A DNA stretch of 64,000 bases from Escherichia phage vB_EcoM_LNA4. Numbering within the stretch: position 1 is the first letter of the stretch; every line of letters begins with the position of its first letter. The DNA lies in the sequence record MZ311864.1; one strand, 5' to 3'. Made by a program: the position numbers and the translations under genes. The notes under the pieces are model-generated. The model made no database searches, was not told where the DNA came from, and was given only the letters and a program-made list of their open reading frames with translations. Below, in pieces: positions 14,203 through 55,163 of this stretch.

Positions 14203-15456
14203 CTACCACTTAATTTCACGCCGGGTGATGCTACGGATAGCGTCAATACGAGCTACACGAATCGCCTCACCAATCTCGATACCGCTCTTATCCTTTGCAA
14301 GACACTCAGCAGAGATCACCTTTGTATCAACGGCTTTCATGCAACGGAAAGCATCCATCAGCACGTAACCCTGTGGGTATGGCTCTGCCATTTTGGTTGG
14401 GCCACGACCCTTCGCATCACAGAAACAAGCATCAGCCAGAGCAGAGACCTTCATAGCGGTTTTCGCGCTTGCCACGTTGCCAGCGGCTTCAAACAGCTTC
14501 ATCAGTGAGCGGGGTTTTGCACCTTTGTTGCCTCCACGAGGAGCAATGCAGTGTACACGCGTGTGGTGCTCAGTCACATACAGAGCTACATCACGGAAGT
14601 CGTTAGGAACACGGATACGCTCGCACAACTCACGCACTGGTTCAAGACCCTCTTCTTCGTGACCGATCAGATTACCATACTTACGGAAAGTGAGCGCTTT
14701 ACCGAAGTCGTGGCACAGAACAGCGAACTTGGTGTATGGGTTTGCCTCATAGATGTCTGCCACATCAAGACACAGCAGCGTATGAATGAAAGCATCCCCT
14801 TCCGGGTGGTGTTCCGGTGGTTGTGCTACACCACGGAGGGCATCAAGCTCAGGCAATTCACCAAGCTCTGCCATTGCCTCCGCGTAGGCCCGGAAGTTAT
14901 CAGAGGCCAGAGCCTTCTCCATTTCTTTCCACTTGCGCTCACCGCTGATGTGTGACAGACCATAACGGTTATTGAAGCACAGGGCTTTAGTATCTGCATG
15001 GATTTCCCACTCTTTACCCAACTGGGCTTTAAAGCGGTAGACACGTAGGATACGCAGCGGATCGTCAAGGAATGCCAGCGTTGTATGACGCAGGATTTTC
15101 TTTTCGATATCATACTGACCACCAAACGGGTCAATGATCTCACCTGTCTCAAGGTCTTGAGCCATAGCGTTGATCGTCAGGTCACGACGAGACAGATCCT
15201 CCACCAATGTCACATCGGGGCTGAAGAATGTCTCGAAGTCGGTATGACCGTTACCAGTCTTACGCTCAGTACGGGCCAGGGCATACTCTTCGTTGGTTTC
15301 AGGATGCAGGTATACTGGAAAAGCAGCGCCAACCTGGGTGAAACCTTTATTGATCATTTCTTCGTGCGTTGCACCCACAACCACGTAGTCACGGTCATGA
15401 ACTTCACGACCAAGCAAACCATCACGCACAGCGCCGCCTACCAAATATACCTTCAT
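14203..15456 (-). CDS. cca: tRNA nucleotidyltransferase (CCA-adding enzyme) with HD domain
   Basis: N-terminal MKVYLVGGAVRDGLLGREVHDRDYVV head motif and HD-domain histidines (HHPEGD); 417 aa. Confidence 0.8.
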   Translation of the reverse strand: MKVYLVGGAVRDGLLGREVHDRDYVVVGATHEEMINKGFTQVGAAFPVYLHPETNEEYALARTERKTGNGHTDFETFFSPDVTLVEDLSRRDLTINAMAQDLETGEIIDPFGGQYDIEKKILRHTTLAFLDDPLRILRVYRFKAQLGKEWEIHADTKALCFNNRYGLSHISGERKWKEMEKALASDNFRAYAEAMAELGELPELDALRGVAQPPEHHPEGDAFIHTLLCLDVADIYEANPYTKFAVLCHDFGKALTFRKYGNLIGHEEEGLEPVRELCERIRVPNDFRDVALYVTEHHTRVHCIAPRGGNKGAKPRSLMKLFEAAGNVASAKTAMKVSALADACFCDAKGRGPTKMAEPYPQGYVLMDAFRCMKAVDTKVISAECLAKDKSGIEIGEAIRVARIDAIRSITRREIKW

Positions 15457-24246: not shown

Positions 24247-26562
24247 TTACAATGCACAACCTTCACAGTACGGATCTCCAACCGAGTTGTCTGCAATCAG
24301 CGGGTAGTCCTTGCGGGTCTCTTCCTCTGCTTGCTTCTTCGCCTGAAGCTCTGCGGTCAGGGAGTCACCAGCACCAACCTTAGAATTCAGGTAGTACCAG
24401 GTCTTCATCCCCATTTTAGTCGCACGGATCAGGTATCCAATCTGGTCCTTCATCGAAATCTTCCCGTCTTTCAACTGGGTATAGTCGATGTAAAGGTCAG
24501 CACTGATAGCCTGCCCTGCAAACTTCTGAATGACGGCGTAAATGTCAATCAGGTCGTTGGTGTTGATATCCCACGCAGAGGTGTAGTAATCCTTCAGTTC
24601 TTCATACTCAGGCACGATAAACAACACAGAGCCTTGAGGAGATTTCTTGAAGATTACATGGTCACGCACCGGATACAGACCGTTCGTTGTGTTGGTAGCC
24701 AATGAAGAACTTTCGTTCGGCATATACGCTTCCAAGACACTGTTGCGGATACCACCATTCTTGATGATTTCCTGTCGTAGAGTTTCCCAGTCCTGTTTCA
24801 GACTTGGATTCTTCACAACACTATCAACTGCCTTGTTGTAGGTGTCGATAGGCAACCAACCCTGGGGGTACTTGGTCTTGTGCATCCACGGAGCCACACC
24901 ACGTTCTTTCGCTAGGCGCAAGCTTGCCTTGTGCAGGCTGTAGCTGTGCAGTTCTGCCAGGTCGTGAACCAACTGCTTGCTTTCCGGAGAACCATACGCG
25001 ACTTTGTGTTTCGCGATGTAGTGAGCAAGGTTAGTCAGGCCAACACCAATCGAGCGACGAGATTCGGCTGTGTGCTTCATATTCTCATACGGATAATCCA
25101 TGATATCCATAACGTTGTCGATCATCAGGACGGTGTAGTAAGCAACATCCTCGTACTCTTCCGGAGTAACACGACCAGCAACCAGAGAGGACAGGAAACA
25201 CAGGGCCACTTCACCATCGTCTGCATCATGGCTAAACAGGTTACGCATATCCTTGTAGCCCTTGGTAACCAAACAGATTTCCTGACACAGGTTAGAGGAG
25301 TAAATTGTCTCCAGGAACGGTGTGTGTCGGTTCATCTCGTCAGGCCAGTACACGTACAGGCGACCAGTTTCTGCTCGTTGTGTGATGATCTCCAGAGCCA
25401 AGTCACGGGCCTTAACCCAAGTCTTAGGGATCTTCTTATCAGCAGCAATACGGGCTACTTCCGCATCGAACTCCTGCATAGTCATCTTGAACATCCCTTC
25501 GTGCAACTGAGGGGCATCCTTATAAGAGACCAGCATCCAGTCAAGGTTCTTCGCCACACGGTTCATGAACGACTGGTTGATACCGATGGAATAATCCATT
25601 GTGTTCAGGCGTTTAGAGGTCACTGTGAGCGGGTTTTTAAGTCGCATCAGATCTTCGACTTGTGGGTCGATAGCCAAGAACGAAACTGTTGCAGAGCCAC
25701 CACGGGTTGACTGACGGTTCTCTTTCACACCAGAGTCAATGCCACGGTAATATGGGATTTTACCCATGTGTTTGATCGTATTGCCACGAACACCATCACC
25801 GATTGAGCGGGAGGATAGGTAATAACCGATCCCGGCCTGTGCAACAGTCATTGTGTACGCAACTTCACGAGCAACACCGATGCTCTTAGCTGTGTCGTCT
25901 GCTTTGATAATGCAACATGACGCATAGCCAGTCCTACCAGTACGCAGGCCGTTCAGGTACGGCGTTGGTGCGTTGATCTTCAGGTCAGACAGATACGTGT
26001 ACAGTTGGATAACGTCATTGATACGGCGTTCCTTCGGCATACGTTTCATTACTGCCATTGCGATACCCATGAACATCATCTGCGGAGATTCAAACAGAAC
26101 ATCGTTGATGTTGTCCTTGATACCGTACTTATCGCGGAACTGTTTCAGTACCGCATACCCATAACTCAGGTCTTTCGAGTGATCAATAGCCTCTTCCAGC
26201 TTAATCAGGTCGAAAGAATCATAACCCATATCTTCCCAGTAGCCGATATTGGTCATGTAGTGGTAGAAGTTAAACAGCGTAGGGATCTTGGTAAAACCGC
26301 CATACGCCTCTTTGTAGATCTGTCCGATGAGCACACGACCTGCCATACGGGAATGCGCTTCATCTTTACGACTTACACAAGCGTCGATCAATGCCTGGTT
26401 TACTTCACGAGTGGTGCAACCATCGTACAGACGTTTGTAGGCGTCCATTGAGATGTGTGACCAGTTGCCATTGCCGTCATCACCAAAGATCGCTGCTTTG
26501 TTAAGACGTTCCGGCTCGAACACAACCTCTGTTCCATCACTCTTTACAACTGTATTGATCAA
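24247..26562 (-). CDS. nrdA: ribonucleotide reductase large subunit (class I)
   Basis: 771 aa with N-terminal ATP-cone-like segment and conserved C-terminal Cys pair (CEGCAL). Confidence 0.9.
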   Translation of the reverse strand: MINTVVKSDGTEVVFEPERLNKAAIFGDDGNGNWSHISMDAYKRLYDGCTTREVNQALIDACVSRKDEAHSRMAGRVLIGQIYKEAYGGFTKIPTLFNFYHYMTNIGYWEDMGYDSFDLIKLEEAIDHSKDLSYGYAVLKQFRDKYGIKDNINDVLFESPQMMFMGIAMAVMKRMPKERRINDVIQLYTYLSDLKINAPTPYLNGLRTGRTGYASCCIIKADDTAKSIGVAREVAYTMTVAQAGIGYYLSSRSIGDGVRGNTIKHMGKIPYYRGIDSGVKENRQSTRGGSATVSFLAIDPQVEDLMRLKNPLTVTSKRLNTMDYSIGINQSFMNRVAKNLDWMLVSYKDAPQLHEGMFKMTMQEFDAEVARIAADKKIPKTWVKARDLALEIITQRAETGRLYVYWPDEMNRHTPFLETIYSSNLCQEICLVTKGYKDMRNLFSHDADDGEVALCFLSSLVAGRVTPEEYEDVAYYTVLMIDNVMDIMDYPYENMKHTAESRRSIGVGLTNLAHYIAKHKVAYGSPESKQLVHDLAELHSYSLHKASLRLAKERGVAPWMHKTKYPQGWLPIDTYNKAVDSVVKNPSLKQDWETLRQEIIKNGGIRNSVLEAYMPNESSSLATNTTNGLYPVRDHVIFKKSPQGSVLFIVPEYEELKDYYTSAWDINTNDLIDIYAVIQKFAGQAISADLYIDYTQLKDGKISMKDQIGYLIRATKMGMKTWYYLNSKVGAGDSLTAELQAKKQAEEETRKDYPLIADNSVGDPYCEGCAL

Positions 26563-54284: not shown

Positions 54285-54313
54285 TTGCAAAAGATTGTTT
54301 TCACTGATAAAGT
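54285..54313 (+). promoter_or_regulatory. sigma70-like promoter
   Basis: TTGCAA, 17-bp spacer, TAAAGT upstream of tRNA at 54322. Confidence 0.3.
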
Positions 54314-54321
54314 AATTACAT

Positions 54322-54410
54322 GGTTCTTTGACCGAGAGGCCGATGGTAGCAGGCTGTTAACCTGCCTGGAGTAATCCACGACGAAGGTTCGAATCCTTCA
54401 GGAACCGCCA
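54322..54410 (+). tRNA. tRNA with GTT anticodon (Asn) and long variable arm
   Basis: Canonical loop CTGTTAA on GCAGG/CCTGC stem, 17-nt variable arm with TGGA/TCCA stem, T-arm GAAGGTTCGAATCCTTC, G73, CCA. Confidence 0.6.
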
Positions 54411-54443
54411 AATTAGGTGATACGCTACCTTAAGTGCGAACTT

Positions 54444-54520
54444 GAAAATTAATGGGGCCGTGGCTGACAAGGTAATGGTGCCGCACTGTCTATGCGGAAA
54501 ATGAGGGTTCGATCCCCTTC
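54444..54520 (+). tRNA. tRNA-Asp (GTC)
   Basis: Loop CTGTCTA on CCGCA/TGCGG stem, T-arm GAGGGTTCGATCCCCTT, CCA. Confidence 0.6.
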
Positions 54521-54713
54521 GGTCTCGCCAATTTGATATGTTGATGTAAATTGCCGGAAGGCACTCAAAATGAGTTCGACATATCAAACCAAATACGCTC
54601 TTGCAGGAAAGGTTAGCCTCCCTGCAATGTCACACTAGGTGATCAGAGCGGATCAAATTAGCTAGCCAGCGATACCAGTTGCAGTGTCTGGGACAATTAA
54701 AATTCTGCACCTT

Positions 54714-54791
54714 CGGAGCGTAGCGCAGTCTGGTCAGCGTGGGAGCCTTGGATGCTCTGGGTCGCAGGTTCGAATCCTGCCGCTCCGACCA
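54714..54791 (+). tRNA. tRNA-Pro (TGG)
   Basis: Loop CTTGGAT, T-arm GCAGGTTCGAATCCTGC, CCA. Confidence 0.8.
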
Positions 54792-54796
54792 ATTTA

Positions 54797-54872
54797 GCAG
54801 GTATAGTTCAACTGGACAGAGCATCAGTTTACGAAGCTGAGAATCGGGGTTCGAATCCCTGTATCTGCACCA
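54797..54872 (+). tRNA. tRNA-Arg (ACG)
   Basis: Loop TTACGAA, T-arm CGGGGTTCGAATCCCTG, CCA. Confidence 0.8.
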
Positions 54873-54907
54873 AATTAAGGCTTGGATTTCTTCGGACCCA
54901 AGCGCAC

Positions 54908-54984
54908 GGGCGATTGATGGAATTGGTATACGTGTCGGATTTAGATTCCGAATTTTGGGGGTTCGAGTCCCCTGTCGCCCACCA
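54908..54984 (+). tRNA. tRNA-Leu (TAG), short variable arm
   Basis: Loop TTTAGAT on TCGGA/TCCGA stem, A73, T-arm GGGGGTTCGAGTCCCCT, CCA; no long variable arm. Confidence 0.6.
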
Positions 54985-54991
54985 ATCCTTC

Positions 54992-55067
54992 GGGACTGTA
55001 GCTCAGTTGGTAGAGCACCTGATTGAAGATCAGGGTGTCGGTGGTTCGAATCCACTCGGTCCCGCCA
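54992..55067 (+). tRNA. tRNA-Phe (GAA)
   Basis: Loop TTGAAGA on CCTGA/TCAGG stem, T-arm GGTGGTTCGAATCCACT, CCA. Confidence 0.8.
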
Positions 55068-55073
55068 AATAAT

Positions 55074-55146
55074 TGCGAGCTAGAATTCTGGTGAATTCAC
55101 GAGTCTCATAAGCTTGTTCAGAGGGGTTCGATTCCGCTGCTCGCAA
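55074..55146 (+). tRNA. tRNA with CAT anticodon (Met or Ile2), no encoded CCA
   Basis: Perfect acceptor TGCGAGC/GCTCGCA, loop CTCATAA, T-loop TTCGATT; 3' end lacks CCA. Confidence 0.6.
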
Positions 55147-55163
55147 CTAACAGAGGACTTAAT

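Follow-up and report, generated by a model that had tools for sequence, protein, structure and literature searches.

Which amino acid does a tRNA receive when its anticodon belongs to asparagine and its body carries a long variable arm? The question is posed by a gene at positions 54322–54410 (+ strand) of the 64,000-nucleotide stretch of DNA analysed here (hereafter the window), which comes from Escherichia phage vB_EcoM_LNA4 (MZ311864.1), a Seunavirus of the Vequintavirinae. Seryl- and tyrosyl-tRNA synthetases (SerRS and TyrRS) pick their substrates by long variable arms, and the textbook rule, to our knowledge, restricts such arms in bacteria to tRNA-Leu, tRNA-Ser, tRNA-Tyr and tRNA-Sec. 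A preliminary description of the gene had proposed that SerRS might charge it and that the asparagine codons AAC and AAU (AAY) would then be decoded as serine during infection, with an asparagine tRNA bearing an unusual insertion as the fallback. We favour the fallback: the asparagine identity set, synteny and AAY usage make it probable, with a chance of roughly three in four, that the gene encodes a working phage tRNA-Asn(GUU) on a class II (long-arm) body, charged by the host asparaginyl-tRNA synthetase (AsnRS) and decoding AAC and AAU as asparagine.

The gene is a genuine, structurally intact class II tRNA. ARAGORN reports a tRNA-Asn(gtt) of 89 nt, encoded CCA included, at exactly these coordinates; the Rfam model RF00005 scores it at 51.0 bits (gathering threshold 29, E = 5e-8) and treats 14 nt of the variable region as an insertion; the minimum-energy structure computed with ViennaRNA is a five-helix cloverleaf that includes the variable hairpin (−27.1 kcal/mol); and the copies of the gene in phages 4MG, GAP31, VIK251, EC152 and 7t3 already stand in GenBank as tRNA-Asn. 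The full sequence on the + strand is GGTTCTTTGACCGAGAGGCCGATGGTAGCAGGCTGTTAACCTGCCTGGAGTAATCCACGACGAAGGTTCGAATCCTTCAGGAACCGCCA. Its segments follow one another as the 5′ acceptor strand GGTTCTT (54322–54328; G1–C72, G2–C71, U3–A70), TG, the D arm ACCG-AGAGGCCGA-TGGT (54331–54347), A, the anticodon arm GCAGG-CTGTTAA-CCTGC (54349–54365, with the anticodon GTT at 54356–54358), the variable arm (54366–54382), the T arm GAAGG-TTCGAAT-CCTTC (54383–54399), the 3′ acceptor strand AGGAACC (54400–54406), the discriminator G73 (54407) and CCA (54408–54410). In the ARAGORN drawing the acceptor stem has 7 bp, the D stem 4 bp ending in a G–U pair, the anticodon stem 5 bp closing a CUGUUAA loop and the T stem 5 bp; the D arm is of class II type, its 9-nt loop holding GG and extra bases after the GG. 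The variable arm, drawn as C-UGGA-GUAA-UCCA-CGAC, consists of a single C, the stem strand TGGA (54367–54370), the loop GTAA (54371–54374), the stem strand TCCA (54375–54378) and four unpaired bases, CGAC (54379–54382); its length of 17 nt and its own 4-bp stem, closed by a GUAA loop, place it in class II, which is defined by a variable region of at least 10 nt with a stem-loop of its own.

The preliminary description had this architecture right: the variable region of 17 nt does form its own stem, the anticodon loop is CTGTTAA and the discriminator is G73. The folding check that it had called for yielded no type I alternative: ARAGORN, Rfam and the minimum-energy fold agree on the long arm. 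A type I fold and an intron are both ruled out, given that all three methods put the extra 12–14 nt in the variable region. The idea that the GNRA loop is a special signal was discarded as well, since GNRA tetraloops are just as common in the arms of phage tRNA-Ser and tRNA-Leu.

Covariation indicates that the variable hairpin is more than chance. The alignment behind this comprises 42 distinct long-arm relatives, most of them tRNA(GUU) and a few of other isotypes, and was fitted to the model, which biases it towards the structure. In it, all four pairs of the variable stem change on both sides, and 95% of the cells pair, compared with 60% in shuffles and 33–46% when the partners are slid.

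The tRNA carries the complete asparagine identity set known for E. coli AsnRS. E. coli AsnRS relies on G34, U35 and U36 together with G73, and transplanting these nucleotides into tRNA-Lys transfers asparagine identity (PMC9976931); in the window tRNA they are the GTT at 54356–54358 and the G at 54407. The preliminary description had counted G73 towards serine, but E. coli asnT has G73 as well, so that this discriminator offers no argument for serine. What stands of its reasoning is that SerRS disregards the anticodon, reading the variable arm and the tertiary shape instead, and that the body is of class II; moreover, the G1–C72 and G2–C71 pairs conserved in tRNA-Ser (PMC9976931) are present in the window tRNA alongside G73. 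Given that SerRS ignores the anticodon and that features of the serine type are present, the idea of serylation is not absurd. The part that does not hold concerns the arm, whose geometry is unlike that of tRNA-Ser.

The D arm of the window tRNA matches that of a phage tRNA-Ser(GCU) exactly; its 13–22 pair is G–U, whereas the serine type (3-bp stem, extended loop) has G13–A22. Serine-type variable arms combine a long stem with 0–2 unpaired bases before position 48, as in E. coli serV and serU, where a stem of 6–7 bp is followed by one unpaired 3′ base; the window arm has 4 bp and four unpaired 3′ bases. We surveyed this geometry with one hairpin-finding rule on tRNAs from the same IMG/VR viral contigs. 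Among the matches listed, 72 phage tRNA-Ser have stems of mostly 4–7 bp and leave 0–2 bases unpaired in 94% of cases; 36 phage tRNA-Tyr have stems of 3–4 bp, with three unpaired bases in 22 of them; and the 84 long-arm tRNA(GUU) have stems of 3–4 bp in 77 cases and three or four unpaired bases in 65%. By this measure the geometry of the window arm is tRNA-Tyr-like and not tRNA-Ser-like.

A review of tRNA identity names, among the determinants of class II identity, how many bases stay unpaired at the foot of the arm. Exchanging the Tyr and Ser arms cuts tyrosylation more than 300-fold. For TyrRS, G34 and U35 are determinants and A73 is critical; G73 is an antideterminant for this enzyme and for leucyl-tRNA synthetase (LeuRS) too. 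The window tRNA has G34, U35 and a long variable arm, but G73 in place of A73. It fails the serine and the tyrosine identity sets in one defining feature each, and we infer that SerRS would reject it by arm geometry and TyrRS by G73. A serine-like acceptor and a serine-like arm geometry occur together in no long-arm tRNA(GUU) among the matches listed, in numbers too small to be meaningful.

The genome itself follows the standard code at AAY. NrdA (24247–26562, − strand) was aligned with 45 homologues of 51–78% identity: at its 36 AAY codons asparagine fills 49% of the aligned cells and serine 6%, a share within the range of other polar residues (aspartate 8%, lysine 6%); all seven columns with at least 90% asparagine are AAY, and none of the 18 columns with at least 90% serine is. 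Reassignment of AAY to serine at the level of the genome is thereby ruled out; the test speaks to reassignment, low-level mistranslation being beyond its reach.

Comparison with related phages points the same way. There the slot between tRNA-Lys and tRNA-Asp always holds a tRNA with a GUU anticodon and G73, which is of one of three kinds. Class A, the kind present in the window, also occurs in 4MG, GAP31, VIK251 and EC152, in the Avunavirus phages Av-05 and 18-1-2 and, in another array context, in the 348-kb Salmonella jumbo phages 7t3 and SE_PL. Its acceptor stem GGTTCTT/AGGAACC is invariant, its D arm is of class II type, and its variable stem, always followed by four unpaired bases, covaries (TGGA/TCCA, GGGA/TCCC, GGGAG/CTCCC, GAGA/TCTC). 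Class B (FENT2, AV124, SalP219 and pEa_SNUABM_55; 38 phage records overall) has D and anticodon arms close to those of E. coli tRNA-Asn and a 4-bp variable hairpin, either GAGC/GCTC or GAGT/ACTC, whose tail is three bases long. Class C (Mydo, BIS47 and GEC_vB_MG) is an ordinary tRNA-Asn of 72–75 nt (75 in Mydo, 72 in GEC_vB_MG). As the NrdA of GEC_vB_MG is 93% identical to that of the window, very close phages use a normal tRNA-Asn in this slot. The function of the slot, as read from these comparisons, is that of tRNA-Asn, and on no fewer than two occasions within the subfamily that function has come to be combined with a long arm. The sameness of the class A acceptor stem across Seunavirus, Avunavirus and jumbo phages suggests horizontal transfer and a strong constraint on the acceptor. 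In the copies at loci L002, L003, L004, L009 and L015 the acceptor is identical, and the D, anticodon, variable and T stems covary.

Long arms of this kind are also found on other class I isotypes. Among the matches listed, the same IMG/VR loci contain long-arm Thr(UGU), Met(CAU), Ile(UAU), Ile(GAU), Cys, His, Trp, Lys, Glu and Asp tRNAs, which often share a common scaffold (3-bp D stem, 11-nt D loop, and a variable arm of one base, 3–4 bp, a tetraloop and 3–4 bases) and some of which carry the motif GGAGUAAUCC of the window tRNA. Long-arm versions, those of Thr and Pro included, keep the discriminators of their own isotypes: U73 in seven of eight Cys, C73 in five of five His, G73 in five of five Trp, and A73 in Met, Ile, Pro and Lys (among the matches listed). 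If the arm conferred serine identity, all these isotypes would be mischarged; the arm is hence best read as an isotype-independent add-on that the cognate synthetases tolerate. It is commoner on Asn (10/110) than on the other class I isotypes (28/681; p = 0.03). Among the matches listed, its occurrences also cluster: long-arm Thr(UGU) accounts for 12/37 in loci with a long-arm tRNA-Asn vs. 1/46 in control loci (p = 2e-4), the corresponding figures for the other class I isotypes pooled are 73/855 and 18/580 (p = 2e-5), and a long and a short tRNA-Asn stand side by side in 19 of 89 loci.

The type is recurrent. A scan of IMG/VR for the pattern CTGTTAA, 17–30 bases, GGTTCRANTCC, with ARAGORN run on the loci, gave at least 89 loci (of 119 among the matches listed) with a tRNA(GUU) of 79–93 nt whose extra bases lie in the variable region, and at least 93 distinct sequences; when the scan was opened to short as well as long spacing, 10 of 109 tRNA(GUU), or about 9% (about one in eleven), had the long arm. 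Long-arm tRNA(GUU) have G73 in 89% and U1–A72 in 62% of the matches listed, short phage tRNA-Asn in 87% and 53%; phage tRNA-Ser, among the matches listed, have U1–A72 in none and G2–C71 in 93%. In 596 Gb of prokaryotic genomes searched with the long pattern, 13 of the 120 matches listed are true long tRNA(GUU), and 9 of these 13 lie in dense arrays of 10–36 tRNAs within 8 kb (Mycobacterium, Verrucosispora, Thermoguttaceae and others). Dense tRNA arrays are known features of mobile elements (PMC5966550, PMC12803027). In the full-text literature searched, outside which most subscription journals lie, and in reviews on tRNA identity and non-canonical tRNAs, we met with no account of a phage tRNA-Asn of class II. 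The long-arm phage tRNA-Asn is a recurrent and apparently undescribed type; the gene itself is already annotated as tRNA-Asn.

Several individual loci deserve mention. In prokaryotic genome loci L144, L154, L216, L252 and L257 the long-arm tRNA(GUU) sits in arrays of 18–36 tRNAs per 8 kb, which are probably mobile-element or prophage arrays. When representatives of four other IMG/VR subfamilies were compared by BLAST with cultured-phage records, one matched, in Cellulophaga phage phi4:1 and in an uncultured 636-kb phage; the phi4:1 gene (L367 2495–2583; NC_021788.1 90400–90481) is a long-arm tRNA(GUU) with U1–A72 and G73, annotated 'tRNA-OTHER / tRNA-Pseudo'. Long-arm tRNA-Thr(UGU) genes of 85–88 nt, with the same scaffold and variable-arm motif GGAGUAAUCC as the window tRNA, occur for example at L035 11416–11502, L036 1394–1479, L069 4406–4492 and L096 5808–5892. 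The genes called tRNA-Ile(UAU), of 88–96 nt (L036 582–674, L076 3492–3584, L124 4574–4666 and L126 4202–4291), look like a separate, unusual family: their D arms are very short, the discriminator is A73, and the long variable arms hold a conserved sequence of the CCAGAU/CUAGAU type.

The body of the window tRNA is most likely class II in origin and remoulded from a class II phage tRNA. Its G1–C72 pair, class II D arm and 17-nt arm place it outside the bacterial tRNA-Asn sequence family (U1–A72, standard D arm, 5-nt variable loop), to which the class B relatives belong. The nearest E. coli tRNA is tRNA-Tyr, with 78% identity over nt 10–78: the T arm is identical to that of tyrT and tyrV, and the anticodon stem differs from that of tyrT by one pair; the anticodon loop is identical to that of asnT. 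For a further comparison, against about 2,200 phage tRNAs, we took the core alone, cutting out the variable region and masking the anticodon. Long-arm Asn set aside, identity is 75% to phage tRNA-Ser(GCU), 72% to E. coli tRNA-Tyr and at most 71% to short tRNA-Asn, and 23 nt of the D arm, TTGACCGAGAGGCCGATGGTAGC, are identical in the tRNA-Ser(GCU) of Pseudomonas phage PPSC2 (L011). Possible routes would be a single change, GCU to GUU, from tRNA-Ser(GCU), or two changes, A36 to U and A73 to G, from tRNA-Tyr. For the type as a whole, a single origin from tRNA-Tyr is ruled out by the mixed nearest neighbours of 95 long-arm tRNA(GUU) cores among the matches listed: once other long-arm Asn are set aside, 29 cores lie closest to short Asn, 11 each to Tyr and Gln, 8 to Ser and 5 to Leu, by which the type is polyphyletic, with several origins.

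These affinities set the window tRNA apart from each of the known systems that it resembles. Canonical tRNA-Asn (E. coli asnT, T5, Mydo, GEC_vB_MG) shares its CUGUUAA loop, G73 and CCA, its slot in related phages and presumably its synthetase and codons, but has a variable loop of 4–5 nt, a 4-bp D stem and a standard D loop, whereas the window tRNA has the 17-nt arm and the class II D arm. Phage tRNA-Ser(GCU) (PPSC2, Torfinnsbu) shares the closest core, the D arm, G73, the class II build and, in some copies, the G1/G2 start of the acceptor; the window tRNA differs by U35 instead of C35, by a variable stem of 4 bp vs. 5–6 bp and by four unpaired 3′ bases vs. one. With bacterial tRNA-Tyr(GUA) (tyrT) it has in common the T arm, a near-identical anticodon stem, a short variable stem, a 3′ tail of 3–4 nt, G34 and U35; it has U36 and not A36, G73 and not A73, so that the tyrosine identity set is swapped for that of asparagine. 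Nematode nev-tRNAs and bacterial allo-tRNAs (PMC5389517, PMC7609411) likewise combine a long variable arm with the anticodon of a class I amino acid, but there the arm dictates charging with Leu or Ser and causes, or could cause, recoding; allo-tRNAs have an 8/4 or 9/3 acceptor/T geometry. The window tRNA is unlike both in its 7/5 geometry and in a discriminator and acceptor that follow the isotype of the anticodon. Among cases of tRNA remoulding, we know of none in which a class II body was turned into a class I isotype; the window tRNA keeps its class II arm. In such remoulding, or alloacceptor shifts, a body takes on the anticodon and decoding role of another isotype (PMC3923123); the window tRNA has taken the discriminator too.

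Under our preferred reading, that of a working tRNA-Asn, the gene would be transcribed within its array of 23 tRNA genes; host AsnRS would read G34, U35, U36 and G73 and attach asparagine; the tRNA would decode AAC and AAU; and the Tyr-like geometry of the hairpin would confer no serine identity. Its job would be the one customary for phage tRNAs, to sustain the decoding of asparagine codons during infection, including when the nucleases PARIS AriB or P2 OLD destroy host tRNA-Asn. ARAGORN found no second tRNA-Asn in the array or elsewhere in the window.

Several points nevertheless weigh against this reading. Class II synthetases of the AspRS/AsnRS type approach their tRNA from the side of the variable loop, where a long arm could hinder AsnRS. 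Himeno et al. reportedly found in 1990 that two nucleotides added to the variable stem of tRNA-Tyr create serine acceptance, in which case small shifts in geometry count. The tRNA has kept features that SerRS uses: G1–C72, G2–C71, G73, a D arm identical to that of phage tRNA-Ser(GCU) and a structured long arm. This copy holds more serine-type features than most of its type, and its charging is judged here from sequence. The invariance of the class A acceptor across very different phages is unexplained by the identity rules of AsnRS. The T5 tRNA-Asn of the PARIS rescue work is an ordinary 78-nt tRNA and sets no precedent for a long arm, and the literature searched held no aminoacylation or expression report on any long-arm tRNA-Asn.

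Among the alternatives, a serine-accepting or dual Ser/Asn tRNA, through which AAY would in part be read as serine during infection, survives best, and we consider it unlikely. The resemblance of core and D arm to phage tRNA-Ser(GCU), from which GUU is one change away, would suit it, as would the invariant class A acceptor with its G1–C72, G2–C71 and G73 and the reliance of SerRS on arm and shape (PMC9976931). However, a 4-bp stem with a 4-nt tail is not the arm of a phage tRNA-Ser; across the wider type, among the matches listed, G2–C71 is not conserved and U1–A72 predominates; and the same arm sits on many isotypes with non-G discriminators. The phage, moreover, already has three tRNA-Ser genes, and replacement of asparagine by serine throughout its proteome would be costly. 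The recoding of AAY proposed in the preliminary description finds no support in the codon test, the arm geometry, the normal tRNA-Asn of close relatives and the discriminators that other isotypes keep.

A different role for the arm is suggested by defence systems that act on tRNAs. The targets of AriB, of the PARIS system, and of P2 OLD include Lys(UUU), Thr(UGU) and Asn(GUU), of which Asn(GUU) is a secondary target (PMC12409363, PMC12445682); tRNA-Lys, tRNA-Thr and tRNA-Asn of T5 neutralise AriB (PMC12409363); OLD cleaves Thr(UGU), Lys(UUU), Asn(GUU) and Val(UAC) in the anticodon stem (PMC12445682); and Septu and retron-Eco7 (PtuAB) cleave the variable arm of tRNA-Tyr, which phage tRNA-Tyr variants counter (PMC13096335). 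With the phage tRNAs that work against these systems (T5 against PARIS, phage tRNA-Thr against P2 OLD, phage tRNA-Tyr against retron-Eco7 and Septu) the window tRNA shares a target anticodon, but those tRNAs escape by point substitutions or a shortened anticodon stem, and escape by way of an extra variable arm has no reported precedent. Positions 36–40 of the window tRNA read UAACC and not the AriB motif UAAUC (PMC12409363), U39 being replaced by C, and the tRNA keeps the CAG/CUG (CNG) pair, of the kind cut by OLD. A second AriB subunit has been modelled on the D loop of tRNA-Lys(UUU), where the tRNA-Lys of the window has an insert. Given that the long arm adjoins the anticodon-stem strand cut by AriB and OLD, that the neighbouring tRNA-Lys carries this D-loop insert and that long arms are overrepresented on Asn and Thr(UGU), it is plausible, if speculative, that the arm provides steric escape from tRNA-cleaving nucleases. 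The narrower idea that the arm replaces anticodon-stem escape mutations against AriB was rejected, UAAUC being present, among the matches listed, in 40/96 long and 54/123 short phage tRNA-Asn (p = 0.78).

That the tRNA is mainly a decoy or shield, whose arm or class II body soaks up or resists PtuAB, AriB and OLD while translation is secondary, seems to us quite improbable. It would account for the cleavage of tRNA-Tyr at the variable arm and its countering by phage variants (PMC13096335), for the match between the targets of AriB and OLD (PMC12409363, PMC12445682) and the isotypes with long arms, commonest on Asn and enriched on Thr(UGU), and for the loci in which long and short tRNA-Asn coexist. 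Yet the anticodon loop, G73, CCA and T loop are intact and conserved, the gene is the sole tRNA-Asn of the phage, UAAUC is no rarer in long than in short tRNA-Asn, and the link to nucleases is one of analogy. We also regard as a long shot the pair of bolder ideas that charging is dual, leaving a fraction of serine at asparagine codons, or, less radically, that the arm is a selected, isotype-independent module that blocks nucleases.

A neutral relic or decaying gene, with weak or no function and an arm left by accidental insertion or by recombination in an array that evolves fast and abounds in homing endonucleases, is a very doubtful alternative. The 'tRNA-OTHER/tRNA-Pseudo' label on the phi4:1 gene is in keeping with it, and the lack of a long arm in tRNA-Leu, in the window and in about half of the phage tRNA-Leu genes sampled, suggests that arms come and go where the synthetase is indifferent. 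Against decay, every helix is intact, CCA is encoded, and the variable stem is held by compensatory changes over large divergence; the type makes up about 9% of the phage tRNA-Asn sampled, and it stands on two unrelated bodies within one subfamily. Hardly credible, finally, is a tyrosine-accepting tRNA that reads asparagine codons, for although its nearest E. coli relative, tyrT-like T arm, Tyr-like variable arm, G34 and U35 resemble tRNA-Tyr, the antideterminant G73 (in 89% of long-arm tRNA(GUU)) replaces the A73 found in 39 of 41 phage tRNA-Tyr, both among the matches listed, and AAY stands for asparagine in the NrdA codon test.

The surrounding array (49029–55147) comprises 23 tRNA genes, 22 found by ARAGORN and one, tRNA-Lys(UUU), by Rfam only; across most of its length, the tRNA region shares 97% identity with Escherichia phage 4MG and Cronobacter phage GAP31. 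This tRNA-Lys(UUU) (54066–54149, + strand, 84 nt; 50.5 bits) is the upstream neighbour in the Lys-Asn-Asp slot, as synteny confirms. Its D loop holds an insert of about 13 nt, AAGCGG-CGACGTATGTCT-AA, with a possible GAC/GTC mini-hairpin; the insert is kept in FENT2, 4MG and L017, and the gene is 86–87 nt long in SalP219 and pEa_SNUABM_55. The downstream neighbour, found by ARAGORN and again supported by synteny, is tRNA-Asp(GUC) (54454–54530, + strand).

Other tRNA genes of the array are also unusual. tRNA-Leu(UAA) (52326–52403) and tRNA-Leu(UAG) (54908–54984), both on the + strand, are 77–78 nt long, with a short variable loop, a class I shape and A73; in the relatives FENT2, Mydo, AV124 and pEa55, tRNA-Leu(UAG) has 85–86 nt. 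E. coli LeuRS has been reported not to need the long arm, which fits the short-arm tRNA-Leu of phages. tRNA-Ser(GCU) (53879–53971) and tRNA-Ser(UGA) (53972–54060), on the + strand with no spacer between them, both have U73 and not the usual G73, as do 18 of 73 phage tRNA-Ser sampled. In tRNA-Ser(UGA) the D arm is odd, and the tRNA-Sec model gives this tRNA 34 bits, under the model's threshold of 47 bits. Outside the array, a gene at 14203–15456 (− strand) encodes a protein of 417 aa that combines a PolyA_pol head domain with RNA-binding and HD domains and resembles a CCA-adding enzyme (tRNA nucleotidyltransferase).

For annotators, the findings carry a warning: the same type of gene is called tRNA-Asn in some records and 'pseudo/other' elsewhere. 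Were the tRNA serylated after all, it would be the first virus-encoded ambiguity of a sense codon. As a tRNA-Asn, natural and conserved, it departs by its long arm from the textbook rule on variable arms, and together with its relatives it provides natural material for testing how SerRS, TyrRS and AsnRS tell class II shapes apart.

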